DNA of 64,000 nt from Hydrolagus colliei. Lineage: Eukaryota. Shown here one piece after another: positions 3,993-54,792 of the stretch. The notes beneath the pieces are model-generated. The model made no database searches and was not told the origin of the DNA. It saw only the letters and a program-made list of their open reading frames with translations. The number at the start of each line of letters is the position of its first letter. The stretch's first letter is position 1. The stretch lies in the NCBI GenBank assembly GCA_035084275.1, contig CM068742.1:70556001-70620000 (forward strand), read 5' to 3'. A program made the translations under genes and the position numbers.

Positions 3993-4029
3993 TACTTATA
4001 TCCCATAATGTTATTTCCGAAAAGAAAAC

Positions 4030-20605: not shown

Positions 20606-20974
20606 TACTATTATTTACAAGTCACCTTTGATGCTTTTCTTAATATGATTTGGTGAACCAGTATGGTGTCTAGGGGGAAAGTAAAAATGGTAAATGTCAG
20701 ATAAATGCCAAACCTTAGGCAATTTTCCTTATTCCACATGCCCCTGTTTACCTAGTAGTACGTTGGAACTCGGTTGTTAGTCATTGGCAGATCGCTTTTC
20801 CCGGGATAACAATCCCTCCCTAAACAAATGTGGTCACTCAATCCATGACTGTTTGTGAGACATTGCTGCATGCAATTGGCTGTTATCTTTTACCCACAAA
20901 ATGCAGTCAATCCACTTTAAAATGAATTAACATACATTTTGAATATAAAATATATAATTCAGTTATATATTTCC

Positions 20975-21235
20975 GGTTCGATTCCCAGCAGGGCAAAAAC
21001 TTGGGCAAGTTTCCTTATTCCACATGCCTGATAATAAGCCCTCAAATTTTTTTTTATTAATGGGTCGTTTCAATCCACGAGTGTTTGTAGGACACTGCTG
21101 TGCGCAATTGGCTACCGTGTTTCGCCCACAACTATATGGTCAATTAACTTTACAGTATATTCTGTGAAGTGCTTTGAGACGTCTAGAAGATGTGAAAAGT
21201 GGGATATGAAATGCAAGGATTATTATTATTATTAT
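20975..21235 (+). mobile_element. tRNA-derived SINE, 5' truncated
   Basis: B box ggttcgattcc, core and tail. Confidence 0.85.
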
Positions 21236-22760
21236 TCTGCAAAGCACTTTAACCATTTCAACTACGCAAAAAGTCATTACATCAAATGCAAGTATTATTA
21301 ATATTGGAACGATAATAGGGAAAAGCAAATAAAAATGTAATAATCAGTGTCAATTTCACTGTCTACAGTATAGATTGGATAGAATCACATAACCATAAAA
21401 ATGTATGGCATAGAGAAAGCCAACCCATCCCCAGCTTGGGTGCAGTTTAGTATTTAATTCCTACTTCAATTTGGAATGAGGATTATTCTGCTCCATTCAC
21501 TGAATGTCGAAAATTCCCGAGTCAAGTTAAGCACCGGTTTACTCAGTTTGCTGTTTTGCGGTTTTGTTGCTTTGCATTCATAAATAACAGCAATGCAATT
21601 TGAATAACATTACACATGAGACCCACAGACAATGGTGACATCAGGCACACAAAGACATTGCCTTGATGGTTGATATGCATGAAGCAGCGCAGCTGACATC
21701 AGAGAGTTGATTCATGTTAGTGCTATTTCAAAGCCACCGTGTCGTCCAGAACACTGAACCCACTTCGGCAGACGTTCCAGAGATGCTGCATATACCTACA
21801 AATACATAGTCAATACACTTTACAGTAAAGACTTTAAGATGTTTCATGAGCCCACGATATACCTCTTAGTAATAATAATAATGCTTGCATTTGATATAGC
21901 ACTTTTCATGTCTTCTGGATGTCGCAAAGTGTTTCACAAAATATATTGTAAAGTGAATTGACTGTATATGTGGGCAAAATGCAGCAGCCAATTACACACA
22001 CCAGTGTCCCATGAACAGTCTTGGATTGAAATGAACTATTACTGTTTTTACTAGATCTCAAAGCGCTCCAGAGAACATACTGTGTAGTATATACTCTTCT
22101 CATTGCAATACTATGCAAAACATAATTAGCATCTAAGCCACCTTCTGTGTGGCGAATCAAAAACAATCTAGATACCCAAGGTCAGAAATTCTCCTTAGTT
22201 TTAGTTTGTAATACATTGCAATACATTCATTTTTTTTCCAGTAACTATAGCCCTGTTTTCATTCATTATTAAAAAGAACCACAAAAAAGGAATTACTGTG
22301 AAGAGTTTCCACATTTCTGCTTGGAATGTTTATGAAATTTCGGCTATCTGGGGATTGATTTTTGACCGGAATTCGCTGATGCGATCTTGAAAAATGATTT
22401 TCTAATGTAATTTTTCTGAATTAGAATCTTACATTAGTAAATTTACTATGAGAAAATGACTGTCTATCACCCGTGTGCCTGCTTGTAGCATATCTTACCC
22501 AATTTATAATGTTATGTAAGATGTCATTAGCCTTGAGTGGCTTTAGCTCATGCACTCTGGGAGCCAGCAGTCTATCTGTTCTTCTGAACTGAACAGCTGT
22601 GGGTCACCTGGTGTCTTCAAGATGAAAGGAATCATGCATTCCTCCAGGGAACTGTGCATTTACATGGACAATGTTTCTGCAGAATGATTAAATGAGATGC
22701 CTGCAACCGAGGAATGCCATTGAGTTACGGGCAGGTGCCTGAATAACTACACAAGTGCAG

Positions 22761-23485
22761 TCAACAACAACAACAACAACTTAAACTTGTAAAGCGCCTT
22801 TCACGTCGGGAGGACGTCCCAAGGCGCCGCACAGGAGGCGTGTGACCCGAGCTGGGAGGGGAGTGTTCGGGAAGGGGTGAAACATGTAGGGGAGGTCGAA
22901 AAATTCGGGGTGGGAACAAAAGGCACGGTCGAAGAGGAAAGTCTTCAAACCGGCCTTGAAAGAGGAAAGGGAAGAAACAAGACGGAGGGATTGGGGGATG
23001 GCATTCCATAGGGTGGGAGCGGAGAAACTGAAGGCCCGGCCTCCGATGGTGGGGCGGTTCGGGTGGGGGGCTTGGAGCAGGTCAATTCCTGCTGAACGGA
23101 GGGTCCGGGTGGGCTTATAGGGGGAGAGTAAATTGGTTAAATAGGGCGGGGCAAGGCCGTGTAAGGCCTTGAAGGTGAGGACGAGGATCTTGAACTCGAT
23201 CCTCTGGAGGATGGGGAGCCAGTGGAGACGGGCGAGGGTGGGGGTTATGTGGTCGTGGAGGCGGGTACGGGATAGTACACGGGCTGCAGAGTTTTGGATG
23301 GCCTGCAGCCTGTGAATGGAGGAACTGGGGAGGCCGACGAGGAGAGAGTTTCCATAGTCCAGCCGTGAGGTGATGTATGTGTGCACGAGTGTTTCAGCAG
23401 CGTGGGGGGTCAGGTAGTTGCGGAGCCTGGCAATGTTGCGCAGGTGGAAATAAGCGGTGCCGGTCAAGGCACGGATGTGGGGTCA
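22761..23485 (-). mobile_element. L2 LINE 3' portion, young copy with an open 228-aa frame
   Basis: Uninterrupted ORF2 C-terminus, CpG-rich, intact 3' stem-loop and (TTG)n. Confidence 0.95.
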
Positions 23486-23521
23486 TTGATTTCCTGCACG
23501 GTTTCAATAATATAGTGATAC

Positions 23522-23808
23522 TATTAATCCTGGCATTTGATATAGCGCTTTTCACATTTCCTAGACATCTCAAAGCCCTTCACAGAATATACTGTAAAGT
23601 GAATTGACTGTATAGTTGTTTGAGAATAGCCAATTGCGTACAGCAGTGTTCCACAAACAGTCGTGGATTGAATGATTGATTTATTATGGTTTTTTTGAGG
23701 GATTATTATTAAGCGTGTAGAGTAAGGAAATTTATCCAAGGTTTCGCCCTGCCTGAATTCAAACACAGGTCTCACGATTGGGCTCTAACCACTGAGCTAC
23801 AGGACTCC
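23522..23808 (-). mobile_element. tRNA-derived SINE (short form)
   Basis: Reverse complement head, core and tail. Confidence 0.88.
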
Positions 23809-24553
23809 AGTTGGATGCTATCTAGTTCTGGTTAAAACAATGCAGGCTCTGTGCCCTTCTATTGTTCTGATGGGTAAAAGAGAAGGATCGTTCTCAGAGC
23901 GCTTCCATCAACTCTGTTATGCAGTGCAACATGTCAAAATAGCTGACTCTTTGATTTCTCCTGTCGATGTCAGAAGGTCCTGGATTAAAGAGGTAGAGAG
24001 CAATGTCGACGTTTACTACCACTGACAATAGCAATGCTAATCAAGCCCATTCCTTCCACAATCAAAGAGAAGACGCTAATATTCAGTCCATATCACATCC
24101 CTGTCCGCACCTACGACTGATGCTCCAGTGTTGGCAATGACACATTTGCCTTGCTCTCAGTGCAGTTCCACCTTTTCTGTTTAAAAATCTAGGAAATCCC
24201 ATTCTTCTCCTGTAGCTCAGTGGTTAGAGGACTCACGAACAACAACTTTGATTTACATAGCGCCCTCCACGTTTTGATCTCTTGAGGTGGAATAGTGACC
24301 GCAAATATTTTTGGTAGAATTTTCATTACATCTCAGCGGAAGACAACACACTGATTCTCACTTTCACTGAAAAAGGCAAAGAGAGCTTCATCTTAGAGTT
24401 TGTCATTTCGCTCCTTGAATGGTAAGCCAACAGACTTCTGTGTGGAGACAAACATCCTTTGTTTTGTATTTCTAGTGTTCTTTGTTTTCAATCTAGTATT
24501 AATTAGGTTGTGAATACTGTTATAAGCAAATTGACATTTCCCTGCACTTGTGA

Positions 24554-24585
<32 letters not shown>

Positions 24586-24608
24586 CCCTGTTCCCTGCAC
24601 CTCATCAG

Positions 24609-24648
24609 CCTGTCACTGGCGTTGCCTAGCTCACAAGTGACCAAGAAG
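24609..24648 (+). other. Candidate 40-nt upstream (probably 5'UTR) exon of the EGF gene
   Basis: Long polypyrimidine/(CT)n tract then catcag| acceptor; donor aag|gtacgt; contains no ATG. Confidence 0.35.
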
Positions 24649-24959
24649 GTACGTCCTTAAACATATGATAGGAAGAGAGATGAGCAAAGTGCATGAGAGT
24701 AGGAGGAACCAGTAATCTGTCCCAGACTGGGTGAAACACTGTGAGGAATTTCCACAGTTGTTACTTGACTGAGAAAACCCAGGGAGGGCATCGAGACCTT
24801 AAGGGGGTGACTGTGCAGATCGCCTCGAGCATCTGGATGTTAAGGACGCTGTACAGGCGCCTTGACCCTCACCCCCCCTGTAACCCTGAGAGCTGCTGAG
24901 CCACCAGAGTGCAAGCGATCTGGGGTTTGATTGACTTGTTCCCCTTGAAATTCACGTGA

Positions 24960-25200
24960 GTATTTTCTCTCTCTCTGAGCGCTGCAGCGACTGACCGGCA
25001 TCTCGTGCTGTTGATTTGCCCCGGGTTCCCGAACTGAGCCTTTCTGTGCATCAGCCGAGGAGCGGATCAGAGGTTCGCCTCCCCGCCCACGGTGACGGCT
25101 GGACCCACGACCGTCTTGTTGCTCCTTGTCCTCGGCTGCCCTCTAAATGCAGACACGCACAGGCGGTTCAGGTACGTGTTGATGTGTTTAGTGGGTGTGA
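24960..25200 (+). promoter_or_regulatory. Small CpG/GC-rich patch at the 5' end of the EGF gene
   Basis: Local CpG enrichment against a CpG-depleted background; GC box ccccgccc at 25081-25088. Confidence 0.4.
25089..25171 (+). CDS. NPNT/EGFL6-like gene, putative coding exon 1 (signal peptide)
   Basis: Reads (T)VTAGPTTVLLLLVLGCPLNADTHRRF, a hydrophobic signal-peptide-like core, and ends at donor ttcag|gtacgt (phase 2). Lies in a CpG-rich patch. No in-frame ATG: ACG at 25089, GTG at 25092, in-frame TGA at 25035. Confidence 0.6.
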
Positions 25201-25410
25201 TTCTCTCCTCTGTCAATCGCCTTATTGTTTTTTTTTGCAACACAATGAGCAAAAGTGAACGTTTCAAGTTAAGGAACTGGTGGGAAGACCTGAAGGGGAA
25301 CGACTACCCCCCCCCCCCCCCCCCCACACCCCCCCCCCATTTTAATGCAAATCTATGTCTGAAATTGTCCTGTTTCTCTGTGTACACACTGTGCAGCCCC
25401 TCCGGCAGAG

Positions 25411-25517
25411 AGGTGAGAGGGTTGGAGACACCCCGGGGTGGCCGGGTGCTGTGTGTGCCTTTGGACAGTCTCTCTCCTGCTGCTATGGGTGGAACAATGT
25501 CAGTGGGATCTGTCAAC
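25411..25517 (+). CDS. NPNT/EGFL6-like gene, coding exon 2 (N-terminal Cys module); 5' boundary uncertain (25397 or 25411)
   Basis: PGAVCAFGQSLSCCYGWNNVSGICQ matches the NPNT GLCRYGGRIDCCWGW..GQCQ / EGFL6 PGVCHYGTKLACCYGW motif. Perfect donor caac|gtaagt (phase 1). Confidence 0.8.
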
Positions 25518-26504
25518 GTAAGTGGGGGCAACATGTGGGAATTCTCACAACTCTCTCAGCTTCCCCCTGTCTGTCTGTCTGTGTCTGTCTGTCTGTCTGT
25601 ACAGATCGACTGACATTATCCTCGTTTGCACCTGACCCAGATCTTACCTTCTGCACCTTGCTGTGTGGAGTTAGCTGCAGGTAAGTAAGCAGCCCTCTGC
25701 AAACCAGTACTGGACAAGTGTATGTGTTATTTACTCAACCTCATCTCCCTAATATATACATATATATATCCCTAATGTATCCTAAATGAAGGCTGACAGG
25801 GTTCCTAAAAAAAACATTAAAACTACCAAATGCAACCCTCCAGTTTTCGAATGGATGCTGTGCCCTTTATTAACACTCAACCCTGCTTTGCTGCTTCTGA
25901 GTAACTGAGTAAATTAGCTAAAACTGTCCATTGTCAGCCATCAGCAGATTTTTTTTTAAATCTAATAATAATCCTTAAATTAGATAGAGCGCCTTCAAGT
26001 GTCATTGACGCATTTCAAATTGTCTACAACAGCCTGGATTGAGTGACCAAAATGATTTTTTTTTAATTAAAAGATTGAAGTAATCCGATAAAGCTGAAAA
26101 GTTTGGTTAATATACGGGGTTGGAAATGTTTACAGCAACTCATTCAACATAATTAATGTTTATAATTTCGAACCTCCCTTTAATTGATTTATATATCCAG
26201 AGTATGTGCACAAAAAACAATGGGTAGTCGGCCTGAGTGACTCTTAGACTAATTGTTGCCATAGACAGAAGCCTGAAAATAAAGAACTGAAGCTTCGATC
26301 TACATTTGAACCTCAGGGTTGTATTTTGTACACACTATTACCAAACTGCCAGTGGATCTTTTAACAGTTAGGATCTATGAGGGAGAAAATCTGCCTGAGT
26401 CTAGATTTGTTTCTATTTTCTTAAAGATTTAGGCTTTAAGATTATTGAATTCAGTTATAACCTTCAAGACTGTTTTCTGGAGTTTGTAACAGAAACCTTC
26501 AAGA

Positions 26505-26951
26505 AAAATGGCTTTGAAATTTTCTCTTGAAAAGAGGAGGCTAAGGGGGACCTGATAGAGGTCAGGTCCCCTTTAAAATTATGAAAGGTTTTGATATGGT
26601 AGACATAGGGAAGATGTTTCCACTTGTGGGGGAGACCAAAGCCAGGGCCATCAATATAAAATATAATATAAAATAATCACAAATAGATCAAATAGGGAAT
26701 TTAGAAGAATATTCTTTACATAGAGAATAGTGGGAATGTGGAACTTGCTACCACCGGAGTTGTTGATGTAAATAGCACAGATGTATCTAAGGGGAAGCTA
26801 GATAGGTACATGAGGGAGAAAGGAATAGAAGGTTATGCTTATTGGCTTAGTTGAGGAAGGGCAGTAGGAGGCTTGTGGAGCATAAATGCTGGCATAGACC
26901 GGTTGGGCTGAATGGCCCCTTTCTGTATTGTATATTCAAATGTATTCAAAT
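26505..26951 (+). mobile_element. CR1 LINE 3' fragment
   Basis: FSLEKRRLRGDLIEV..KIMKGFD motif, 3' ggctgaatggcc stem and short tandem tail. Confidence 0.8.
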
Positions 26952-27594
26952 GGCTTCAAAATTAACACAGGTTTAAAGAACTTACCAAATTCAGGATTCT
27001 CTGAAATGCTATTATAATAGAGTAAATGTAGACCTAGGTGGAATTTCTACCCCTTATGTTGATGTAGGATGGAGAGTCCAATATTTGTTTTAGCCATTAC
27101 TGCACTGAATTAGGTTCACGATAATTTTTTGCTGTGTTTTATTACATAGTTGTAGAAGGTTTATCACAAAGTGATTAACTACAGTAACAAAAAACTAAGT
27201 AACAATAATAAACTGTTTTTTATACAGCATCTTTCGTGCAAAAACAAATGTCTCAAAGGACTTGACAATGTAATAATAATAATAATAATAATAAAAAACC
27301 TTGCATTTTGATATAGCACCTTTCACATCTTATCCAAGTCTCAAAGTGTTTCACAGAATATACAAGTGAATTGACTGTATATTTGTGGGCAAAATTGAAT
27401 ATTATACAGACAAATACAACACATTTCTGGATCAGAGGTTTCCCACAACAATCAGTTAAGCGGCCAATTCATGTGAACATTTGGTGGCTTTATTTGAATT
27501 AGGAGAGGAATATAAACAATGAAAAATGACACAACTTGTCCATGTTGTCCATGTTATGAAAAAACGGAAGAAAGAATCTTGAGTTTCATTTTCA

Positions 27595-28291
27595 GGTTCA
27601 ACCCCCAAATGTCCTTCCTCCCCCACTCCGGTCCCTCACCAGCACCAATTCTACCACCTCCGACAGATCTCCCGTCTCCGACAATACCTCACTCCAAAAG
27701 CCGCTGAAACCTTGGTTCATGCCTTTGTCATCTCTCGGCTGGACTATTGCAACTCCCTCCTTGCCGGTCTCCCTGCCACCACAATCCACAAAATTCAGCT
27801 AATTTAAAACTCTGCCGCCCGCATACTTACCCACACCAAGCTTTGCTCCCCCATTACTCCAGTCCTTGCCAGACTTCACTGGCTCCTTGTCCCTGAGAGG
27901 ATCGACTTCAAGATCCTCACCCTTGTTTTCAAGTCCTTCCACTCCTCTGCACCCCTCTACCTCTCTGACCTCCTCTTTCCCCAAACCAGCACCAGCTGCC
28001 TTCACTCCACTGGGTCTGGCCTCCATGTCCCCCGAATCCTCCGCTCCACCCTTTGTGGCCGTGCCTTCAGTCACTTCGCCCCGAGGCTCTGGAACTCCCT
28101 TCCTCACTCTCTTCGCTTCGCACCCTCTCTTCCCAGTTTCAGGTCACAGCTGAAGACCTTTCTCTTCGACCGCGCCTTTGGTCACCTTTCAACCCCTGGA
28201 TCGGTCCTGGGATCCATTATTGTGAAGCGCTCTGAGATGCCATCCGGCGTGGAGGGTGCTGTATAAATCGAAGTTGTTGTTGTTGTTGTTT
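27595..28291 (+). mobile_element. L2 LINE 3' portion
   Basis: SRLDYCNSLL..LHWL..RIDFKIL; (TTG)n tail. Confidence 0.92.
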
Positions 28292-28961
28292 GGTGCACAA
28301 CATTTAATGTAGGTCTAAACTATGGTAAATTAAACCAGCCCACTCTGAAGATGTAAGCAACTGCAAGCCCATTATGTGCCAACATATCACTTGAACAATG
28401 CATGGTCAGGTGTGCCCTTAAGTAAAGAATTTTTAGTAAAGAAAGAAGATCATAACAATAAAAGAGCAGTACACCGACATCAAGGATCAAAGCACACTTT
28501 CAGATACACTTTTAGCTTTTCATTGAATTCCATTTGTTTTATTGTCTCAAATCCTTTCCATTGTTGGCTTAAACTCTCAAAGTAACAAATAGCATTCATC
28601 CTTGTTGCTGTGAAAATGGGTCTAAAAGTTCTTCCTGTCCATTCAAGTTTGTGTGGAGGAATCCTGGCAGTTTATAAGTAGTTTAAAATGTATGGGAAAA
28701 AAGGATCCTAATGTTAATGATAATAGCTAAGCAGGGTGAAACCTTGGGCAAATTTCCTTACTCCACACAGCTGATAATTATCCTGTTTTTTTTAATTTGG
28801 ACATTTCAATCCACAACTGTTCATGAGACACTGATGTGTGCAATTGGCTGCCACGTTTTGTCCACATAGTCAATTCACTTTACAGTATATTTTGTGAAGC
28901 ACTTTGAGACATCCAGAAGACATGAAAAGCGCTACATCAAATGCAAGGATTATTATAATAA

Positions 28962-29525
28962 TGAACAATCAGGTCAGGACCCGAGCAGGGGGTGGGGAGG
29001 GTTGGGCTAGAGGAAAGAGAAAGAAGAGTAGGAGAGGGGGGAAGAGTCAGGAGGGGAGCAGAAGGCACGGTCGAAGAGGAAGGTCTTGAGACCGGCCTTG
29101 AAGGAGGAAAGAGAGGAAGTGAGGCGAAGGGATTGCGGGATGGAGTTCCACTGTGTGGGAGCAGAGAGGCTGAAAGCCCGGCCACCGATGGTATGGCGGT
29201 TAGGGCGGTGGACGTGGAGCAGGCCAGAGCCTGCTGAGCGGAGGGGACGGGGGGCCTAATAGGGAGACAGCAGGTCGGAGAGATACGCGAGGGCAAGGAC
29301 ATGAATAGCCTTGAAGGTGAGGACGAGGATCTCAAATTTGACCCTCTGGATGACGGGGAGCCAGTGGAGACGGGCGAGGGTGGGAGTGATGTGGTCGCGG
29401 AGCCTAGTGCGGGAGAGTACATGAGCTGTAGAATTCTGAATAATCTGCAGTTCGTGAAGGGAGGAGCTGGGAAGGCCGACGAGGAGAGAGCCTAGATGTA
29501 ATGAAGGCATGTATGAGTGTTTCAT
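28962..29525 (-). mobile_element. L2 LINE fragment abutting a SINE tail
   Basis: [20 protein letters not shown]. Confidence 0.88.
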
Positions 29526-30281
29526 GGGGGAGCTCTGGAGGGGAAATGGGGTAGCTCTGGGCAGAGGACAATAATAACAATAATCGTTAGTTTTATATAT
29601 TGCCTTATTATGTTGAATAGTTGAAATGTTTCAGGATTTCCAGTGAAGTGCATTGGCTGTACATTTGTAAGCGAATGTGGAAGCCAATTTGCACACAGCA
29701 TTGTACGACAAAAAGACATGAAGTGAATGAGCAATTCTTCAGTTGGCCAGAACTGGGAGAAATTCCCTTATCTGATCAAGTAGTGTAATTTTGTTGTGGA
29801 GCTAGCGGGCAATATCTGGAATAGGTTAGCTTGTGAGGATACATCGGTGCAGACATGCATTGCAAACCCTTTACTTTTGTAACAATTCCTGAGAAACTCT
29901 GCTGTCTGCAAAACCATCTCAAAGTTTATATGTCAATACTTTCTTGTAACCTACAGAGACTGACTGGTTTGCATAAGGTCCTCAACTTATGTCAATAAAA
30001 CCCTCTGCTCACTACTGAATAATACAACAACACTTGCATTCAAAACATTGTTGCATTGAAGAAGTAATCAGAGGATAAATCTTTCAGCAAAACCATAAGA
30101 TTCTGCTCCCAGTCGAAAGTAACTATTGTATATTAACACTTGCAAGCAATGTTAATTGAAACAACTTATTGTAATTGTGAAATAATTGGCACAAAATATC
30201 ATGAAATTGGTCAATTTAAATATTCATACTATTAACAAAGGTTGACTAACAGCTGTATTAAAACAGGTCCTGTATCTTAGT

Positions 30282-30682
30282 GGAGTCCTGTATTTTACTG
30301 GTTAGACCAGTTGCCTTGCAAGAGAGAAGATCTGGGTTTGATTCCCGGGCAAAGCGAAATGTTTGGCAAGTTTCCTTACTCCACATGCCTGTGTTCACCT
30401 GTGTTCACTTAGCACCTAGTAGGAACCCGGTTGTTAGTCGATTGGCGGATGGCTTTTCTGGGGTAACAATCCCTTCAAATTTTTTTAAAATAATAATAAT
30501 TTGGTTTCTTAATCCACCACAGTATGTGGGACACCGTTATGTGCAATTAGCTGTTGCTTTTTGCCCATAAAACACACAAGCAATTTCACTTTACAGTATG
30601 TGAAGCATTTTGAGACGCCTAGTAGACGTGATAAGGCACTACTGCAAAAATTGCAAGGAATGTTATTATTATTATTATTATT
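30282..30682 (+). mobile_element. tRNA-derived SINE (long form)
   Basis: Head, central module, core and (ATT)n tail. Confidence 0.85.
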
Positions 30683-30729
30683 AGATGAGCTTTCAATGTG
30701 TTTCATATTATTCTTTGTTTAACTTGTAG

Positions 30730-30822
30730 CTCAATGTTCTAAACCGTGTAAACATGGAATATGTACTGGTCCGAATCGCTGCACTTGCTTTAAAGGATTC
30801 AACGGAAAGTACTGCGACACAG
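30730..30822 (+). CDS. NPNT/EGFL6-like gene, exon 3 (EGF1)
   Basis: ttgtag|...acag|gtgaaa; 93 nt, phase 1-1. PQCSKPCKHGICTGPNRCTCFKGFNGKYCDT resembles NPNT PVCQPRCKHGECIGPNKCKC. Confidence 0.92.
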
Positions 30823-31171
30823 GTGAAAATTTTACTAAATATTCCTCACTGTTTACTTTTTATTTCCAAAGTGAAAAGCAGCTGAAGTGTTGTGGACCCT
30901 ATTTACTGGCTAATAACAGGGTTTTAATATACAGCTATATGTCGTGGAATTGAAATTTAGCAGTGGTAATATTTCAGTAGTTGTGACAACATGAAATGTG
31001 CTGGTTACGCTTATGGCAGTTTTTTTTTCTGTCAATTTTTGTGCTCCTATTTTCTCTTCTCCTGAAGAGGTTTTGGCTCAAATTTCCATCACCCAAGTTG
31101 CCAATAACCCAGTACGAGCCTTCACAGTCAGTGCTGACATTTGAAAGCCAACATCATTCAGTCTGCTCAGT

Positions 31172-34100
31172 TTAAGAACATAAGAAATAGGAGCAGGAGT
31201 AAGCCATTCGACCCATCGAACCTGCCCCACCATTCAATCATGGCTGATATTCTACTCTAACTCCAGCTCCCTGCCTTATCCCCATACCCCTTAATCCCTT
31301 TATAAATGAGAAATCTATCTAACTCAGTCTTGAACATGTTCAAGGACTGAGCATCAACAGCCCTTTGGGGTAAAGAATTCCATACATTCACCACCCTCTG
31401 AGTGAAGAAGTTTTTCTCAACTCAGTGTGAAAGGGCTGACCACTAACTTTAAGACTGTGACCCCTGGTTTTAGATTCTCCAACCAGGGGAAACAATCTCC
31501 CACTATCTACTTTGTCGTGCCCCTTAATAATCTTATCGGTTTCTATAAGATCCCCTCTAATTCTTCTATATTCCAGAGAATATAGGCTCATATTAATCAA
31601 CCTATCGTCATAACTTATCCCCCTCATTCCAGGTACTAACCTAGTAAACCTACGCTGCACTCCCTCCAAGGCAAGTACATCCTTTCTTAAATAAGGAGAC
31701 CAAAACTGTATTCTAGGTGCCCTATACAGCTGCAGCAAGACATCCCAACGCTTACACTCTAACCCTTTCATAATGAAAGCTAACATATCATTAGCCTTCC
31801 TAATTGCCTGCTGCACCTGCATACTAGCTTACTGTGTTTGGTATACAACTACACCCAAGTCCCTCTGCACGCTAACACTTTCCAATCTCTTCAATCTCTA
31901 AAAAATAATCTGCTCTAATGTTTTTGCGACCTAGGTGGATGACTTTGCACTTCCCTACATTATAGTTCATCTGCCATCTACCTGCCCACTCCCTAACCTA
32001 TCTATATCGTGTTGCATTTTTTTAATGTCATCCTTGGGATTAACGCTTCCTCCTAGTTTCGTATCATCAGCAAATTTAGATATATTAAGCTTGATGTCCT
32101 TATCTAGATCATTGACGTAGATGATAAATAGCTGACTCCACTAGTCACATCCCGCCAATCTGAGAAAGACCCATTTATCCCTACTCTTTGTTTCCTACCC
32201 ATTAACCATTCCCTAATCCATGATAATATGTTCCCCCCAATTCCGTAGGCCCCTATCTTTTGGATCAACCTTTTATGCGGCACCTTATCGAATGCCTTCT
32301 AGAAGTCCAAATAGACTACATCCACGGATTCACCCCTATCTAGTTTACTCAAAATATCCTCAAAAAATTCTATGAGATTCGTCAAACATGACTTCCCTTT
32401 TGTAACGCCACGTTGACTTGGCCTAATTATATCATTGCTCTCCTAAATACTCCACTAAAACATCCTGAATCAAGGATTCTAAAATGTTTCCTATCACCGA
32501 TGTCAGACTAACTGGCCTATAGTTCCCCATCTTTTCCTTTCCACCCTTTTTAAATAGTGGTGTGATATTTGCAATCTTCCAATCCATGGGGACTGTTCCA
32601 GAATCCAAGGAATTTTGGAAGATCAGACACAAGGCCCCCACTATCTCATAAGCAACAACAACAACAACTTTGATTTATATAGCGCCCTCCACGCCGGACA
32701 GCGTCTCAGAGCGTTTCACAATAGCGGATCCCAGGACCGAGCCAGGGGCAGGGGTAGAAAGGTGTCCAAAGGCGCGGTTGAAGAGAAAGGTCTTCAGCTG
32801 GGTTCTGAAGCTGAGAAAAGAGGGGGCAAGGTGAAAGTAGTGAGGAAGGGAATTCCAGAGCCTCAGAATAGTGGCTGAAGGCACGGCTGCCGAGGGTGGA
32901 GCAGAGGATTCGGGGGACATGGAGGAGGCCAGACCCAGTGGAGCGGAGGCAACGGGAGCTGGTTTGGGGAGAGAGGAGGTCAGAGAGGTAGGGGGATGCA
33001 GAGGAGTGGAGGGATTTGAAGACAAGGGTGAGGACTTGAAGTCGATCCTCTCAGTGACAGGGAGCCAGTGAAGTCTGGCAAGGACTGGAGTAATGGGGGA
33101 GAGAAGTTTGGTGCTGGTGAGTATGCGGGCGGCAGAGTTTTGAATGAGTTGGATTTTATGGATTGTGGTGGTGAGGAGACCGGCGAGGAGGGCATTCGAA
33201 TAGTCCAGCCGTGAGGTGACGAAGGTGTGGACCAGAGTTTTAGCGGCTTTTGGGTGAGGTATTGCTAGAGACACATTGCTTATCCATCCTATAAACTATA
33301 AACTGAAAACCTTGGGATATTTAACTCCCACCCTAGATCTCCCTGTAGTCATGTTTCAGTGATGGTTACCAAATTGTACCCATATGTGTCTAATTGTGCC
33401 TTTAATTCATCCGTTTTATTCCGAATGCTTCGCGCATTCAAATATAAAGTTTTGAATTTCCTACGATTTCCCCTACTCTATGATTTCCTATCTACTTTGC
33501 CAAGCTTTTTATCCCTAGTTAACAGATTTTTAATATTCATATTCACCAGTACCCTATCACTGGGCTTCTTTTCCCCGCTTGACACACTCTGCTCATCTCC
33601 CTCGTTAATCAGCTCTCCCACTTTCATCAATCCTAATTTTAATTGTGATGGATTACATCTGACTATGATTTTACCCCCTCCCCCCCACCCCCCTTAGTAG
33701 TTTAAAGCCCTGTCTACCTCCCTATTTATTCGTGTCACCGGGAGATTTGTCCCAAGCCTGTTTATGTGGAGTCCATTCCTTTGGAATAGCTCCTGTTTCC
33801 CCCAATATTGATGCCAGTGGCCCATAAAATGAAACCCCTGCCCTCTGCACCACTCTTTTAGCCAGGCATTCAGATCCTTCATTTTCTTTTGGCTGTACCA
33901 ATTAGCCCCTGGCTCAGGTAACAATCCCGATATTAATACTTTCGATGTTTTATTCATTGGCTTAGCTCCCAATTCCCAGAACTGGCGCCTCAACTCGTCC
34001 CTACCAGTCCTACCTACATCATTGGTCCCTATGTGAATTATAACAATTGGATCCTCTCCCTCTTGCTTCAGATTTTTCTCCACCCCGGAAGTGACGTCCT

Positions 34101-34720
34101 TCACCCCGGTCCCAGCAAGGCAACAGAGTCTTCTTGTCTCCCTGCTACAGCCGCAGAAAAGTGTCTCAGTCCCCCTGACTGTCTCATCCCCAATTACCAC
34201 TATATTTCTTCTGACTATTCCCCCTTGTGTGGCCTCCTGAATAGAGGTGTTGGAGTCAGTTTGCCTATCTTCCTCACAGACTTCCTAGTCCACACAGGTT
34301 GCAAGTATTTCATACCTGTTGGACAAGGATAAAGCCTGGGGATCCTCTGCCCCTATCTTTCGGGTCCCCGTACCTGCCCGTCTGATCGTCACCCAGTCCT
34401 GTCCGTGGCTGGAAACGGGATCGATTTGTTCCGTGGGCCTCGGGGGAATGACTGGCTCCAGGATTAAACTGTTCAGGAAGCTCTCACTATCTTTGATGCT
34501 GCGCAGTGTCTCCACCTGAGACTCCAGTTCAGCTATTCTTAGCTGGAGCTTCCTCAGTTGTAGAAACTTGCTGCAGATGAAGTCGCCCAGGCTCAAGTTT
34601 CCCTCCATCAACTCCCACATACCACATTCCTCACACATCACCTGCCAGGCCATTCTCTCCTCTCACTCTCTTTTTCCTTATATTATTATAATATAATAAG
34701 CTTGCACCTACTCTGCACCT
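31172..34720 (-). mobile_element. CR1 LINE retaining both ends, with an internal deletion and an L2 insertion
   Basis: ORF1 Zn-finger/leucine zipper (34285-34653, CEECGMWE..LQLRIAELESQV) and SGNH esterase (33694-34200, VIGD..HIGTND..GLH). ORF2 fragments NYRPVSLTS, QFWSPYLRKD..LEGVQRRFT; 3' end ttcttatgttctta. Confidence 0.92.
32652..33270 (-). mobile_element. L2 LINE 3' portion inserted in CR1
   Basis: [33 protein letters not shown]; (TTG)n tail. Confidence 0.93.
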
Positions 34721-34949
34721 AATTCCAACTCTCACCCAATTCCTTCTCACTCTGGTTTGCAAAACTGATTTTGAATATGAATGGCATAATAAACATATAG
34801 CTTTGTCTTTGGCACCAATTGAAACTTTCCTTCATTAAATTGTGGACTTTTGCTTATGGAAACTATACAGAATACAGATAGAGTAGACAGTGATCATGAT
34901 AGATGTACTTAGGAAGCTCTCCAATATTTTTTGGGGGGTTCATATTATA

Positions 34950-35126
34950 CAGTCAAACCATTCAAGGAACCGCCTCCATTCAACAACCACCTCCTATTAG
35001 CAACCACCCTGGAACATTTCAGACAGCTCAGTTTGCACACAAACAAACCTTTATTCAGAGGCCACCCTTATATAAAGGCCACTATGGCCCTATCCCCTGA
35101 ATGGTGGTTGAAGACAGATTTAACTG
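34950..35126. mobile_element. TA-flanked MITE (Tc1/mariner-pogo type)
   Basis: ta|cagtcaaacc ... gatttaactg|ta, with internal accacc/ggtggt repeats. Confidence 0.6.
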
Positions 35127-36379
35127 TACAGTAAACGTGTTTGTCTACAACTTCCCTATAAAATACAGAAAATTTTCTAAATCCCATGAAGCAATTGCAG
35201 ATATTCTCCTGAGGTGAAAGTTGTTCTATCAAATGCAAGAATTATTATAATGATTACTATTCTTATTATTATTATAGCTTTGATGTCGTCACTACTTTAA
35301 AACAGCACCCAACTTTGCTATGTTTGCGCACCATCTGGTGAAATAAAATTGGTGGCTCAGAAAACCCAATGGCTATGCTCATTGCCATTTATATCACACA
35401 CTTTCACAGAGGGCAGCATCTCAGAGCAGTTAACAGTGTTGGAGCCTGACGCTGAGCCTGGTAAGGGATAACCGTAAGCACTTACTCTATCTACTCTTCT
35501 GGGGTAACATTAGTGCCCCTATCTCTTAGCAGGTAAGAATTATGCTTCTTGGTTTTACCTTTGTTCCCAATCTTTTACTGTGCGCCATCTTTTTCCTTGC
35601 CAACCGACAAGTCATTCAGATGCTTTTTGCAGTTCTTTGTACCTCTTTATGGCTTGTAAGATCCCAGTGCTTTTTAGGGCAATCAATCCCAGTCTCCTGG
35701 CCAACAATCCACTCGATAGATTGATCATTCACCTTCAAGCTGTTTGTGCAATTCTTACTGCCTGGAAAATTACTGCAGTGTTTTCCTACAAAAACAGTTA
35801 CTACACTTGACAGCAATCAATTTAAAGCTCTTTGAGACACGTCAACGTGATAAGGCACTGCAAAAAGGCAAATTCGTTCTTGAACTTTTCTGGGTGCACA
35901 AATGGAGATTGACTTGGATATTTGTTCAGTCCTTGACACAGTCCTGCAAACAGTATGGAACAATGGAATTCAATTGGTCAGCAGTTGACTGAAGCATGGA
36001 GCACTTTTGAACTGATACAATAAGCAGGTAGTTGTCAACATTATGCCTTAGTAACAGCTAGACATTTTTATTTATAACTCAGTCATTAAACCAAATGTAA
36101 CAGTATTTGTTTCCTGCCATTGATCTCACTAATTCTGTCTGTTATAAGTATTATCCAGACCCTAGAGAGGAAGGAGATGATTTTGTCCCCATCTTCATGC
36201 AGCCAGTCTATAGACATGGAAGTTAGTTTGAAGTGATTGCATTTGATTTTCCCTCCCGAGTGGGTAGGTATTTGGGCCTAGGTTTTGCTGAATGCCAATT
36301 GCACATGTGAAATCTACAACTCTCCATCTGAAACTCTGTAGCTGTGTGGCACGTCACAACTTTGTAAACAGGGTCACAA

Positions 36380-36778
36380 TAATAACCCTTGCATTTGATA
36401 TACTGTAGTACCTTCATGTCAGAGAGACGTTTCAAAGCACTACACAGATTTTACCGTAAAGTGTAGTGAATATCTATTTTGTAGGTGAAAGCAGCAAATA
36501 ATTTGCACACAGCAAAGTCCACAAACAGCCACAAGGTAACTGACTAATTTTATCTGGACGATTGTTGGCCAGGGTAATGGGATAAACTCCCATCTCTTTT
36601 CAAATGGTGTCATGGGATCTTTAACATGCATCTGATCAGGCAGATAGGACTTTAATGTTTCATCAGTCGGATGATCCCTCTGGCATTAGAGTGCCAGTTG
36701 AGACCGAATTCAAGTGCTGACGTGGGGCTTGAACCCAAAGTCTTCTGACTCAGAGGCAAGAGTGCTACCAACTGAGCC
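36380..36778 (-). mobile_element. Older Deu-domain-type tRNA SINE
   Basis: Reverse head ggctcagttggtagcactcttgcctctgagtcagaag..ggttcaagcccc, then gttaaagatcccatg..tggccaaca core. Confidence 0.8.
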
Positions 36779-36914
36779 GGGTTGACACGTGGCACCTATA
36801 AAAGGTGGTTAAATAAAGACTAATTTTTCCTCTAAATGCTGGAGGTTGTAAAATGAAACAAATGCTCACTACGAGGTCATGTATTAAAAAGTCATTTGAT
36901 TGCTTTATTTTAAG

Positions 36915-37037
36915 ATATAAATGAATGTGGGCTGATTCCCCGACTCTGTTCCCAACGCTGCATGAACACACATGGAGCCTATCGCTGCTATTGCAGTTAT
37001 GGTTACCAGATGAGCCCTGAGGGGAAGACCTGCTCCA
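36915..37037 (+). CDS. NPNT/EGFL6-like gene, exon 4 (calcium-binding EGF2)
   Basis: ttttaag|...tcca|gtaagc; 123 nt, phase 1-1. DINECGLIPRLCSQRCMNTHGAYRCYCSYGYQMSPEGKTCS. Confidence 0.93.
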
Positions 37038-37094
37038 GTAAGCTGACATTTCTTTGGCTAATAGTTCCTATTTTCTAAGTAATAATAATAAAAT

Positions 37095-37528
37095 AATCCA
37101 GGTAATTTTGGCATTTAATACAGTGCCTTTCACATCAGGAGGACTTCTCAGAGCATTTTACAGGATTCACTGTGAAGTCTAATGACTGTATATTTTGTGG
37201 GTGAACGCAGCAGCCAATTTGCAAATGAAATGTCCCATGAACAGCCATAAAGTTAACGACCAATTTTTAACTGGAGGATAGTTGGCCAGGACATTGGGAA
37301 AAACTCCCCTCTCTCTTCGAATTAGTGCCATAGGATCTTTAACATCAACTGATCAGGCAGCCGGGAGCTTGGTTTAACATTTTCATCCAAAGAATAGTAC
37401 TTCCAACAATGCAGTGTTCCCCCAGGTCTGCGATGGAACGTCAGCCAAGATTATGAGCTCAAAGTCCTGAATTGGGGCTTGAACCCAAAACAACTAACTC
37501 AGAGGTGAGAGCGCTGCCAACTGAGCCA
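37095..37528 (-). mobile_element. Older Deu-domain-type tRNA SINE
   Basis: Same family as 36380-36778; the two copies flank EGF exon 4. Confidence 0.8.
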
Positions 37529-38681
37529 CTTTCTTTCCCATGGAATACTTCCCAGCTTCAGTCTGCTGCCCTGGGGGTATCTGCTGGTGAAAGGGTGCAA
37601 AAGTGGGAGAAGAGGGCGATCTTGTTACAGTAGAACATCAATGCCCTTTGATGTGGACAACCATCAACAGGGGCTGGGCATTGTCCTGACATTATTCCCA
37701 TTTGATTTTACCTGCCACTCAGCAAACCACAGCTTCACTCACGCTCAGTGCACCTCCAAACTTACATTCATCCTTCATTGCGACCTGTTAGTTAATGTGC
37801 AACCGCAATTGCTGCCCGATACAGCACTAAAAGAGCCTATAATATAGACAAAAACACCCAAGAATCCATGCAACAATGATTATTATTATAACTAAGATGG
37901 AGATATTAGAGGGATGAGTGTAAGTTTGAGCAGAGCTGCATGAGTGAAAAAATTACTTGTTCATAGGCTTGTGAATTTTTAAAAAACTGAAATTCTTGAG
38001 ATTTGTTCAAAAGAATTTCATAGAAAGTGTCGAGACAACTGAAGTCCTGCATTAAAACCAGATGTTGACTTTCACATTCAGATCAAATTAGGAAACCTGA
38101 GTGACAGCGTGTGCTCGTCTCCCAGCACACTATGCCCTAGATTGGTGAGGGTGGCTTCACACACACCTTGTATTTTCAATGAGAACTCCTTCAGCTCAGC
38201 CAAGCCCTGATGAAAGCAAAGGGCAAAGCAAGCTACTTTGTGCCATTCATACGGTTCTCTTATTTGCAAAATTCCTTTCAAGTGCTTTGGAAACAAATAT
38301 GCAACCACCATAGTTTTATATAGGAAAACAGGAACAAGATAAGGCCTGAAATTCAGTCCTTTGAGCCTATTCTACCAACTGGTCTTTGAGAATCATATTG
38401 TCTTGTTTAAATACAGGCATGTGACATTCCAGCATTGTGGACATTAGCAGTGTTTGCGGTCTCCTATTCCAGAATTGTCCGAGATTTCTACTGAAATAAT
38501 GACGGCTGTGAATCGCTGAAAGGTGGAATGTTAATGTAACAATATACATACACATCTCAAGTACATGCCTTTGCATATGAGCTTAGCACCATACCAGACT
38601 TTTCAAAATACAAGTCTTTTAAGTCACACATGGATAGGTTTGTGGGTGTATTTTTTGGAGTGTGATATCCTTTCTTTGCAG

Positions 38682-38801
38682 AGACGTCCTCATGTTCTCA
38701 GGCCTGGTGTCAGTACAGCTGCCAGCAGCTGGTGAATGGAAGAGCTCGCTGCCTGTGTCCCAGAGGTCTCCAGCTGGCTTCAGATGACAGAACGTGTGAA
38801 G
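38682..38801 (+). CDS. NPNT/EGFL6-like gene, exon 5 (EGF3)
   Basis: tttgcag|...gaag|gtgagc; 120 nt, phase 1-1. KTSSCSQAWCQYSCQQLVNGRARCLCPRGLQLASDDRTCE resembles NPNT CSMANCQYGC...CQCPSPGLQLAPDGRTCV. Confidence 0.93.
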
Positions 38802-39649
38802 GTGAGCCTTAGGCTAGTCTGTCAGCGCAGTCAAGCCTAGTCAACTTCATCAAAACAACTCCACATTCAGGAATCATTGCTGATTAGATTCACTAACAGG
38901 AAATTTTATTCCTCATAATCTGCTTTTACACTATAAACGTGTCTCCAAAGGCAACTCCATGGGCAAAACCTTAACAAAATTCCCTTACTCCACATGCCTG
39001 TTTACCTAGCCGTAAATTGGGAATCGTTTGGCTGATCGCTTTTGGGAATAATAATTGCTTCAAAAATATTCATAATAATAATTTGGTCACTCAGTCCACG
39101 TTTGTGAGGCACTGCTGTGTGCAATTGACTTCCCCCATTTCACCCACACACAAAAATATACAGTCAATTCACTTTACAGTATATTCTGTGAAGCGCTTTG
39201 AGAAATGTTAAGGTGCTATATCAAATGGAAGGATTATTATTATATTCTAAAATAGCCAGTTTCACCAAATTTAGATCTTTCAAGGTCCCAGACTGCGCCT
39301 CATCTTGTGTTCCCTCCGCACACAGCAGCTCCAACTGGGGTGTGAACAATTGCAGAGGCTGAGCGAGTTGATCTGGTGATGTTCCTCGTTTGCCACAGGC
39401 AGCTTTCAGGAATACCAGCTCCTCTTTTGCTCTAGATTTTGGGATCCCAGAACTGAAACGTACAAATGATACTGTACAACCCAGTTATTGCATACCCCAA
39501 TATACCAAACTAATATCCTTGGTGAGTAAGGATGCGGAGATATATACAAGAAGGACAAAGAAATAAAATTAAACAATGTTCTGTACACTTAATCGCAAAG
39601 CTTGGATGCACACTCCATGTCACTGAGCCAGTCCGGAACCCTGGCGTGC

Positions 39650-40275
39650 CATGACCTGCTCTGCCACTCCCCTCAGGCCATTGAAACCCTCATCCACACA
39701 TTTATCACATCTAGGCACGACCATGCCAACTCCCTGCTCGTCAGCATTTCCAACACTTCCCTCCACAAGCTGCAGATCATCCAGAACTCTGCAGCTCATG
39801 TCCTCTCCCACACCAGGCTCCATGAGCCTATAACTCCCACCCTCACCCATCTCCACTGGCTCCCCATCTTCACTGGCTCTCCATCCCCTAGAGGATAGTT
39901 CAAAATCCTTGTCCTCACCATCAAGGACCTCCATAGCCTTGCTCCTTCTTACCTCTGTGGTCTGCTAATCCCATATTAACTTGTCCGCTACCTCTACTCA
40001 GCAAGCTTCAGCCGGCTTCACGTACCCTACCCGGCCCGCCACACCATTAGCAAACAGACCATCAGTTTCTCTTTCCCCACCCATTGGAACTCCACTCCAC
40101 AGCCCCTTTGCCTCACTCAATCCATTGCCTAATTCAAGGCACGAATCAAGACCCACGTCTTTGACCATGCCTTCGGCCACCTTCCTATCGTTCACCCACC
40201 ATGTTCCCAAATCCGGCCCAAATCCAAAACCCTGACTTCTCAACACCTTAGGACACCTCCTTCCAATGTAAAATT
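39650..40275 (+). mobile_element. L2 LINE fragment
   Basis: ETLIHTFITSRHDHANSLL..LHWLP. Confidence 0.8.
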
Positions 40276-40350
40276 TCATTTGTATAGGATAATAATCTCT
40301 GCTTGTTCCTATGTTCAGCTCTTTCATTATTGCTTGCTTTTGTCTTTTAG

Positions 40351-40485
40351 ATATAAACGAATGTCAAAAAGGGATGGTTACATGCCCCCAAAGCAAAATA
40401 TGCAAAAATACTTTTGGAAGCTATTTGTGTGTCTGCATGGATGGCTTTGTAATTGGAAATGAAGATGAGAATATCAAATGTAGAG
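40351..40485 (+). CDS. NPNT/EGFL6-like gene, exon 6 (calcium-binding EGF4)
   Basis: cttttag|...agag|gtacaa; 135 nt, phase 1-1. DINECQKGMVTCPQSKICKNTFGSYLCVCMDGFVIGNEDENIKCR. Confidence 0.93.
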
Positions 40486-41351
40486 GTACAACAACAATAA
40501 CTTGAATTTACACAGCACATTTCACATCCAGTACCACATCATAACACTTCACAGAGTTTGCGTCAGACATCAAGCAAGAATGGTGGGGCAGGAAGGAAGA
40601 GGGAGATGACTGTAGTTCAAAGGGGTGGGTATTTAGGAGGATTTTAAGGGCAGATACAGAGGTGGGGAGGCAGAAGGAATTAAGGAGTGGTTAGAGATAT
40701 AAATTGTTGGGTTCAATACAATAAAAATTGGGACTTGTAATTCTCTGTACTGTGATCTGTTATCTGTAGCCTGTGACCTGTACTTTATGACCTGTAATCT
40801 ATGACCTGTCGAGCTCATTTACTTTTCTTAATTCAACCATGGATTGCGAAATGACACTGTAACATCACAACACAGTCACTAATAAGTTTTATATATTTCC
40901 CCAAATCCATACCACACAAGTCACTCTCTGCACATGCTGTTATGGACTCACCTTGAGCAGTCATGAGCTCTAAGGCACCTTGAACTCCAATAATAATCTT
41001 CTGTATAAAAATATTTTCTTTAACCTTCTGCTTTTATCTTGTAATGATCATCCTCAATTTGCATCTTCTTGTTAATGACTCACCAAACAGTGGTCTGTGG
41101 TCTCTCTTTATTAAAGCCATTCCCGAGTTTGAAAAGCTGTACCTTAACATCCCCTCGCACGCTAACACTATCGTTCCATGTGACTGGTCATCACATATCC
41201 TCTGTTTGCCTCTACTGGATACATATCTCACCTCACGTGAAGCCAAGATTAAAAAAAAGTGCCTTAGGATCCATTGGAACAAGAAGTGCTGAGATGTCTG
41301 TTTTGAGTTTAAAATCTGTGCTGCTCATTTTTTGCCTGATTTGCTTTCCAG

Positions 41352-41557
41352 ATAAAGACGAGTGCCTCCTGGGAGATCACGGCTGTAGCAGACATGGTCT
41401 CTGCATCAACACATATGGCTCATATACTTGCAGGTGCCAAGAAAACTTCAGAGGAGATGGATTTGTCTGTAAGGACCAGCAAATGCCCCACAAGTTGCGA
41501 GCATCTCTTTTTCACTACAGGATGTTAAAAAGAAAAAAGATTTCGCGCGATCCATAA
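41352..41557 (+). CDS. NPNT/EGFL6-like gene, terminal coding exon (cbEGF5 with RGD plus basic tail, stop TAA)
   Basis: tttccag| then DKDECLLGDHGCSRHGLCINTYGSYTCRCQENFRGDGFVCKDQQMPHKLRASLFHYRMLKRKKISRDP*. Confidence 0.88.
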
Positions 41558-43514
41558 AACGTCAGTTTGAAGTCAAGTTGGAAGAGAAATGTAAAACAAA
41601 TCAAACGAAAAATGTAAATAGTGACAGAAGAATGCACGTCACAAAATCGCTAAAAGAGGTTAAGAGCACAGTGCATATCACACCAAAATATGCAAATCAA
41701 AATGGGTATACTCGGTGTAAGAATACATTGGTTTCCAAGAAAAAACAGCGCAAATTAGAACAAACCTACTGTATGGGTTACACATGTGTTACATTCCTGC
41801 GCTGATTTGTACAGCTACATGCAGCAGCCCCATTTCTGGACATTGTGAAAACACTCGAGATCGAGATTAGATTGAGATTTACTGTTTGAGAAATACGATG
41901 TATTTGATGGCATACATTATGTTGAAATGCATTCATCTCAAAGAATATACAGGCTTGATGTGGAATGGCGTTCTTCTGTGCAAGAAACGCTTATGTTTCC
42001 ATCTTTGTTATGAAAATGACACACAGGTTCCTTCTCTTCCCAAAGCAAGAAAAGTTAAGACGACATTTTGTTCACTTTAGCTTCTCTCACCAACCTGCAC
42101 CTAATACTCTTCGGAATTAAATAAGAAGAGTGCGTCTCTCTAGGGAGAGTGTGCAATCCACTCCAGACGCAAGGAGATTTTCTGGGAAAGGTGGTACACT
42201 TATGTTGAACTCTCAGTCTGGTTTGCCTACTCTTAAGCACGGTGATGGGTTTCTGCATGTGTCAGACATCCCTCTGACCAAAGATAAATTCATTTTTAGT
42301 CTCCAGTAATTTCCCAACACACCCTTTCTTGTCTTTTTCTGTTTAATCGATGCTGCCATAATTAATGCTTATTTGAATTTTCTATTCCAAGCTGCAGTTA
42401 TGCTGTCGCACAATATACTTTCTCTTGCATTGAATCCATGATTTCTCATACCAGGGCCTAATTTGTGCTATTCCCATACTTTATGGAAACAGTAAGTGTA
42501 GATCTTGTTTCGCTGTCCAATCTGCAACATTCATGAAGCAGATCATTGCAGTTTCTGAAAAGTAAAGTAAGGCTGCAGAGTAAAAAAGCTATCATTCCAT
42601 TTTCATCTTTGGCCTTTTCTTTACTCTGCAGTTAGTACATTTAATAATAAAATAATAATCCCTGCATTTGATATAGTGCCTCATCAGGTCACTGAGAGAG
42701 ACTTCTCCAAATGCTTCATAGGATATACTGTAAAGGTGCAGTGACTGTGTATTTTCTGGGCCAATGCGGCAGCCAGTTGTGTCCCATAATCAGCCATGGA
42801 GTAACTGACTTATTTCTGGTTCATATCTAGTCACTGCCTGGTGGGCAGGGGGAGAGAGTGGGTTGGGGGTCACACTGAGCTGTTGGCAAATAGTGTTATT
42901 CTTGAATATTGCAAAATAAGACACGGGGAGTGGGGGTTGGGGGGGGATCAAGGGTTGCAATTATCATTTCCTGTCCCTTTTTTAGAATATCGCAAATTAG
43001 ACTCCCCTATCTCTTAAGTATAATCCTTGTCTTTGATCTAGGTCTGATCAGACCTTCAACATCAACAACAACAACAAAATTACATTTATAGAGCGCCTTT
43101 CACATCGGGGGACGTCAAAACACCTTAAAGCACTTCACAGGATTTACTTTGTGTATTTTTTGTAGCTGGACATATAGGTGGAAGTCATTCATCCTTTTCC
43201 GGGACTTCAACGCGGTATAACCTCTTACCCTCCCCTCGTGTTACTATTTTCCCAAAACAATGCAGGACTTAAAAATTAATGGCAGACAGTACTACCGATG
43301 GCAGGCCATGCGGTTTTAGCTGTCTAGACTCCCAGCAGTACTCCAACTCACACTGTAGGCCCCCAAGCCTTGGCTCTTGCCAACCTGCATCTAATATTTT
43401 CTGGAATTAGGTAAGCAGATTAAGTAAAGGGACATTTTCCAGCAAGAGTATGCATTCCATTCCAACAATCTATCACTGGGATTTTCATGGTGGGTGGGAT
43501 GTAAGAAACTTTAT

Positions 43515-54561: not shown

Positions 54562-54792
54562 TCACCTAATGCAGCGGTACATCATGAAATCTATTGTGGT
54601 ACATCTGGGAAATTTGCCAATTGAACTTTCCTCCACTGGAGTATAGACTTTAATTTGTCTCATGTGAGTGTCTCGTCCATTCTGATGATTGGCCAGCACA
54701 GCAATCTGAATCATAAAGGTCCGGATGGGCTTCTTGTTAACATCAGCAAGAGGTATGTGAATCCAGCCACTGGGCTCGACCAGTTCTAGTTG
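54562..54792 (-). CDS. ANAPC10: Anaphase-promoting complex subunit 10 (APC10/DOC1), last coding exon
   Basis: Acceptor atttacag|, then QLELVEPSGWIHIPLADVNKKPIRTFMIQIAVLANHQNGRDTHMRQIKVYTPVEESSIGKFPRCTTIDFMMYRCIR*. Near-identical to the vertebrate ANAPC10 C-terminus, including the IR tail. Confidence 0.97.
   Translation of the reverse strand, partial: QLELVEPSGWIHIPLADVNKKPIRTFMIQIAVLANHQNGRDTHMRQIKVYTPVEESSIGKFPRCTTIDFMMYRCIR

Follow-up and report, generated by a model that had tools for sequence, protein, structure and literature searches.

The nephronectin family is described as two genes, nephronectin (NPNT) and EGFL6 (also called MAEG), in the accessible part of a review (PMC7956348). 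The same part reports that NPNT has three calcium-binding EGF modules in its N-terminal half, that its EGF repeats bind chondroitin sulphate E and signal through ERK, that its linker binds integrin while its MAM domain binds heparan sulphate and basement membrane, and that NPNT without the MAM domain is released into the medium. EGFL6 likewise consists of a signal peptide, a four-cysteine module with a CCxGW motif and five EGF modules with three calcium-binding sites, continuing into a linker with an Arg-Gly-Asp (RGD) motif (14/14 rows) and a MAM domain. Here, we analyze a 64,000-nucleotide stretch of the Hydrolagus colliei genome (assembly GCA_035084275.1, contig CM068742.1, positions 70,556,001 to 70,620,000; “the window”, whose own coordinates are used throughout), in which seven exons would encode a protein that shares this N-terminal half but stops after the fifth EGF module. 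Unlike EGFL6, it does not continue into an RGD linker and a MAM domain; compared with NPNT, it is without the mucin-like linker, the linker RGD, the LFEIFEIER motif and the MAM domain. Our phylogenetic analysis supports placing it in a third paralogous group, distinct from both NPNT and EGFL6, and the sturgeon and teleost members of this group have the short form as well. Such a gene is a natural experiment on the function of the EGF half in the absence of RGD and MAM. EGFL7 is also a compact secreted EGF protein, but it has an EMI domain and fewer EGF modules than the window protein, and with a cosine of 0.86 in an Atlas search, under the 0.9 bar, it serves as an analogy only.

Gene model and domain content

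The initial annotation of this DNA had joined seven exons, with EGF exons of 93, 123, 120 and 135 nt, into a signal-peptide-like start, a CCxGW module, EGF1 to EGF5 and a stop. These exons are real: they join into 867 nt, that is 288 codons and a TAA, in a frame free of internal stops, with intron 1 in phase 2, introns 2–6 in phase 1 and GT-AG boundaries in all. The features of the gene are as follows.

25089..25171, + strand: coding part of exon 1, signal-peptide-like, with near-cognate starts and a phase-2 donor at 25172
25394..25419, + strand: cluster of intron-1 acceptors, two CAG and two GAG, from frame analysis
25411..25517, + strand: exon 2, four-cysteine CCxGW module, from the short-clade profile
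30730..30822, + strand: exon 3, EGF1, 93 nt, from Pfam and the spliced frame
36915..37037, + strand: exon 4, EGF2 with calcium-binding consensus, 123 nt, from Pfam and consensus match
38682..38801, + strand: exon 5, EGF3, 120 nt, from Pfam and the spliced frame
40351..40485, + strand: exon 6, EGF4 with calcium-binding consensus, 135 nt, from Pfam and consensus match
41352..41557, + strand: coding part of exon 7, EGF5 (calcium-binding consensus, unconserved RGD), then a 28-residue basic tail and TAA

Pfam assigns EGF families to exons 3–7, with EGF_CA over the cut-off in exons 4, 6 and 7, and the calcium-binding consensus falls in EGF2, EGF4 and EGF5, as it does in the EGFL6 and NPNT proteins examined. 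All 34 structural cysteines are retained. The CCxGW module, left out of the profile of the short clade, scores 53.8 bits on it, versus 24–31 bits for the five EGFL6/NPNT proteins listed. Exon 1 contains a hydrophobic core that only 180 of 127948 8-mers equal in hydrophobicity, but it has no in-frame ATG. Where a shorter EGF5 exon would end, the bases following 41474 are AC and not GT, as had been noted at the outset, and the frame continues to the TAA; we count the tail as 28 residues past the last cysteine.

The absence of a MAM exon before ANAPC10, earlier judged by inspection, holds across the window: when the window was translated in six frames into 3329 pieces, a MAM profile built from 74 EGFL6/NPNT proteins matched none of them (best E 0.33), and the same profile recovered 4/4 held-out 35-residue control pieces (E 2e-14 to 2e-6). 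When 82 long proteins were searched by TBLASTN with their C-terminal 230 residues, none of the best 25 matches lay 3′ of the gene; these 25 consist of the EGF exons and weak matches upstream of the gene (20790–21065, E 0.01; 23276, E 0.057). Atlas, PDB and Foldseek searches returned generic EGF proteins, EGFL6 and NPNT only, with Foldseek on the whole model giving only generic EGF arrays, and a profile of the CCxGW module had 0 matches among PDB sequences at E 10. The module may resemble the fibrillin N-terminal four-cysteine (FUN) module.

Orthology to a short fish paralogue

Short fish proteins such as XP_033889795.2 of sterlet, A0A8C1U4U7 of carp and A0A8D3EFC6 of turbot have the same organization as the window protein, with ~290 residues, a CCxGW module, five EGFs and a basic tail, and the window gene is almost certainly the orthologue of this fish gene, known in one of its database entries as Si:ch211-194g2.4. 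With the five EGF exons aligned as the query, 32 of 80 candidates matched, comprising 11 short fish proteins (246–305 residues), an 87-residue fragment from Callorhinchus milii that is identical to exons 3–4 at 65 of 71 residues, 6 EGFL6 and 14 other multi-EGF proteins. The sturgeon protein as query gave 146 matches among 568 candidates, 120 of them listed; the top 26 are proteins of 234–350 residues from ray-finned fishes without a MAM domain (no PF00629), 25 of them from named species and the remaining one clustering with Astyanax. When the spliced model was compared by BLASTP with 143 proteins, the best match was a 296-residue sturgeon protein (61.5% identity over 247 residues), and 23 short forms ranked ahead of the first EGFL6; identity to EGFL6 is ~50% over ~260 residues.

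Trees built on the CCxGW module plus the five EGFs group the window protein and the short forms with 100/100 support, both in a 35-row tree (LG+C20; tree 1), where the group has 14 rows, and in a 19-row tree (LG+G4; tree 2), where it has 7. Tree 2 recovers EGFL6 (96/94) as a separate group that includes two cartilaginous-fish rows, from sawfish and bamboo shark, and also recovers NPNT (100/98). EGFL6 is not a single group in tree 1, which also placed within EGFL6 one row at first labelled NPNT; this row was omitted from tree 2. Constraining the window protein to group with NPNT (amniote) or with EGFL6 costs 74 log-likelihood units and is rejected by the approximately unbiased (AU) test in each case (p 7.1e-5). 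A plain NPNT or EGFL6 orthologue is thereby rejected, and the third, compact paralogue that the initial annotation had proposed is upheld. Medaka and Takifugu each possess a short form alongside EGFL6. In zebrafish, NPNT is represented separately, by its orthologue npnta, according to the accessible portions of two papers (PMC12074719, PMC3253110).

Because sturgeons and teleosts share the ~290-residue layout and a homologous tail, the short form, as judged from these comparisons, is not a truncation peculiar to the Hydrolagus colliei genome. The duplication would be at least as old as the split between cartilaginous and bony fishes, and in this sense the age of the paralogue can be read from the chimaera copy. 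Searching 1.84 billion representatives with a CCxGW-module profile gave 25 matches, of which 15 are short-clade-like, 8 EGFL6-like, 1 a repeat artefact and 1 unclassified; among the short-clade-like ones two are from named teleosts, and the unnamed ones look teleost by eye. Short forms from sharks, lobe-finned fishes or tetrapods did not appear in three protein searches, in which word filters and 50% clustering may hide relatives, and gar and bichir short forms were likewise not seen there; the searches, which are not exhaustive, thus hint at a loss of the short paralogue, such as the one in mammals that the initial annotation had thought possible. Some annotated teleost isoforms (P0018, P0029) skip the EGF4 exon, giving four-EGF proteins of 246–248 residues.

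The initial annotation had allowed that this might be an already named gene, which turns out to be so in part: the orthologues do carry database names, but these are placeholders or mislabels. Naming differs between sources and even inside a single 90% cluster, with one and the same orthologue appearing as nephronectin, nephronectin-like, EGFL6, NPNT or Si:ch211-194g2.4. We found no study of Si:ch211-194g2.4, of “nephronectin-like”, of a third paralogue or of the evolution or synteny of the family in the literature searched, which leaves most subscription journals and supplements outside. The gene is therefore best described as an ancient, database-annotated MAM-less variant that is apparently unstudied, and the start of the window copy is unexplained. 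With orthologues already in databases the surprise is limited; still, the “nephronectin” label in fish annotations can mislead expression studies, and the short paralogue may be a candidate compensator in zebrafish npnta or egfl6 mutants.

The C-terminal tail and a possible role outside the cell

The tail of the window protein has 9 K/R versus 2 D/E in its 28 residues. Orthologue tails (n=23) range from 18 to 54 residues (26–36 in 19/23), are basic in 23/23 and contain an aromatic-x-aromatic-basic core. On a position profile of the orthologue tails the window tail scores 11.3, a value attained by 13/10000 shuffles and by 2/34196 stop-free stretches of the window, and the comparison indicates that the tail is ancient and not a read-through accident. 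The last exon alone, used as a homologue query, retrieved no candidate. Patterns of the heparin-binding consensus type occur in 18/23 orthologue tails versus 6.4 expected from shuffles, which, as the rows are related, counts as one line of evidence. For the sturgeon protein, AlphaFold2 predicts an N-terminal module of four strands, then the five EGFs and, in the tail, a helix.

On balance, we lean towards an overall explanation in which the gene, as the Si:ch211-194g2.4 orthologue, encodes a secreted matrix protein that likely acts on sulphated glycosaminoglycans rather than integrins. For the short clade as a whole, a secreted, glycan-bound role appears somewhat more likely than not. The signal peptide would direct export from the cell, calcium would stiffen EGF2, EGF4 and EGF5 into a rod, and the EGF array could bind chondroitin sulphate E or signal, as reported for the NPNT array, with the polybasic tail substituting for MAM as a heparan-sulphate anchor. 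Without an RGD linker, the protein may deliver an integrin-independent signal or compete with NPNT and EGFL6 in the basement membrane. In Hydrolagus colliei itself, it might be a low-level product made from the ACG or GTG codons at 25089–25095 together with a GAG acceptor of intron 1. A broader and distinctly doubtful scenario would have jawed vertebrates begin with three nephronectin-family genes, the third having gained a basic helix that binds glycans in place of linker and MAM, to become an integrin-blind modulator of NPNT and EGFL6 in fish basement membranes that was lost toward tetrapods and is kept at low dose in chimaeras through a conserved ACG and a weak GAG. Such a low dose, if true, would also explain the sparse annotation in cartilaginous fishes.

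The 5′ end, rival explanations and surroundings

While the annotated short fish orthologues start with Met, the window copy has an ACG, and it also differs from them in its GAG acceptor, in the RGD of EGF5 and in a Leu in place of the tail Tyr. The codon at 25089 is ACG, and no in-frame ATG follows the in-frame TGA at 25035; in-frame ATGs further upstream, at 24693 and 24837, run for 13 and 20 codons before a stop. The position of the sturgeon Met is taken by three near-cognate codons (ACG 25089, GTG 25092, ACG 25095), of which ACG 25095 has the best start context (−3 G, +4 G). Near-cognate codons initiate at ~1–10% of AUG, and TRPV6 starts only at ACG, as stated in the portion available of a preprint (bioRxiv 10.1101/2022.05.02.490320). 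At the other end of intron 1, splicing to either of the CAG acceptors, which end at 25396 and 25408, puts the frame out and leads to a stop at 36918, and the frame is kept solely by the GAG acceptors ending at 25410 and 25419. A search for transcripts of the gene listed no RNA run; its one match, a contig from run X1 (depth 45.7), spans 24620–25560 with the same ACG and acceptors, and since it crosses intron 1 without a joint it is genomic. It differs by 25413 G>A and by 15 gap letters, likely in the C-run. The run makes an assembly error less likely; as it may be the window's own source, it does not count as independent evidence. The copy thus either relies on non-standard initiation and splicing or is newly inactivated, and we put its still yielding a protein at slightly better than even. 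It may be an example of a secreted protein with a rare ACG start, or else of a gene at the very beginning of its loss.

The 25413 G>A difference changes Gly to Asp in the first full codon of exon 2 and reflects another allele or individual. The frame of the signal peptide is open for 191 codons (25038–25613, + strand) across the whole of intron 1 and the C-run at 25307–25338, probably by chance, and it has no Pfam match. At 24560–24650 (+ strand), a TC repeat with a strong-looking donor behind it, AAG|GTACGT, suggests a non-coding upstream exon, without ATG, that could be joined to an acceptor at 24979. In teleosts, frames that read through intron 1 (P0203–P0213 and P0218, compared with P0016, P0019 and P0035) suggest two phase-2 acceptors 9 bases apart, a spacing that agrees with the 3-residue indel by which annotated orthologues differ; throughout the clade, the choice of acceptor may be loose. 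We had considered a conserved Ser at the exon 1–2 junction as proof of an old frameshift, and dropped it, as teleost junctions are often Arg and the frame test is not significant.

Several points weigh against a functional, glycan-bound product. The copy has no in-frame ATG, both of its CAG acceptors are out of frame, and GAG is the least used or preferred type of acceptor according to the accessible part of one study (PMC2699507); nor is there an unusual hairpin downstream of the ACG (z +1.4 and +0.9). The window tail scores just 2.5 bits on a hidden Markov model of orthologue tails, and its Leu replaces a Tyr that is invariant in 29/29 bony-fish rows. The tail helix of the sturgeon model is of low confidence (predicted local distance difference test, pLDDT, 52–55). 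No full-length short protein from a cartilaginous fish was present in the three protein searches. The NPNT rows are amniote only, and both trees are unrooted.

The most serious rival is that the orthology is right and the copy dead, a young unprocessed pseudogene in which the ATG mutated to ACG and a duplication of two bases, AG, at 25409–25410 displaced a good CAG acceptor, so that transcripts stop in exon 4 and decay. It would account for two separate 5′ defects, both present in the genomic contig of run X1, a single 2-base gain would account for the equal offset of both CAG acceptors, and Callorhinchus is on record by its 87-residue fragment only. However, exons 2–7 are free of stops and frameshifts and keep their cysteines and splice dinucleotides. 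The chance of such intactness under neutral divergence is 0.40 at 0.5%, 0.16 at 1% and 0.024 at 2% (rough values with an assumed indel rate); intact exons are thus improbable beyond 1–2% divergence, and the gene would have to have died very recently, both lesions having struck a small target. A frame test of the 5′ part of exon 2 gave no sign of an older frameshift (53/1000 shuffles for the module's frame; 455 and 92 for the others), and the Arg at the exon 1–2 junction and the 15-residue spacing agree with orthologues (15–18 in the 6 examined). We consider inactivation unlikely, though a real prospect. A mis-modelled 5′ end is improbable: the ATG could lie in a further exon upstream, or translation could begin at ATG 25147 and, with use of the GAG acceptor at 25412, give a 268-residue form without a signal peptide. 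That 268-residue frame is open, there are a possible in-frame acceptor ending at 25054 and a strong-looking donor near 24650, and the N-terminus varies among teleost annotations. On the other hand, exon 1 lines up with the signal peptide of the sturgeon protein, both in position (CC at 51 versus 54) and, by eye, round the cleavage site. A scan of 22000–25040 with an approximate donor matrix found no short exon that has an ATG and a strong phase-2 donor, and among upstream phase-0 ATG-donor pairs 2/39 are hydrophobic, neither orthologue-like by eye.

The remaining rivals concern what the protein is and what it binds. EGF-borne RGDs of EDIL3 and MFGE8 bind integrin, and the window protein does have an RGD in the last loop of EGF5, in keeping with the integrin ligand that the initial annotation had suggested. 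Against this, the protein has no linker, and its sole RGD is found in 0/72 tail-bearing relatives, which have A, F, H, L, S, T, V or Y at the position, GD/GN being the ordinary EGF consensus there; for this reason we take the motif as incidental, and think integrin binding through it very unlikely. That the gene is no more than NPNT or EGFL6, its linker and MAM exons having been overlooked, is scarcely credible. Many orthologues do carry the “nephronectin” label, and a possible phase-1 donor at 41469 scores 0.0, compared with 0.1 for one real donor, but that donor would cut the last cysteine codon of EGF5, orthologues stop at the same place, and both the AU rejections and the MAM null with working controls argue against it.

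Downstream of the gene, two features complete the picture.

42116..42121, + strand: ATTAAA, first polyadenylation-like hexamer 3′ of the stop, a putative signal
54562..54792, − strand: last coding exon of ANAPC10, convergent neighbour (PF03256, E 1.2e-25)

ANAPC10 is thus the neighbour that had been named from the start. An HHIP exon was not seen by eye in 1–12000 and 14000–64000, and no HHIP protein query was used. Reverse-transcriptase remnants of retroelements lie at 11343–11789 and 47713–48120 (+ strand; PF00078, E 1e-17 and 9e-11), and the introns are packed, by eye, with many further fragments resembling long and short interspersed nuclear elements (LINEs and SINEs).

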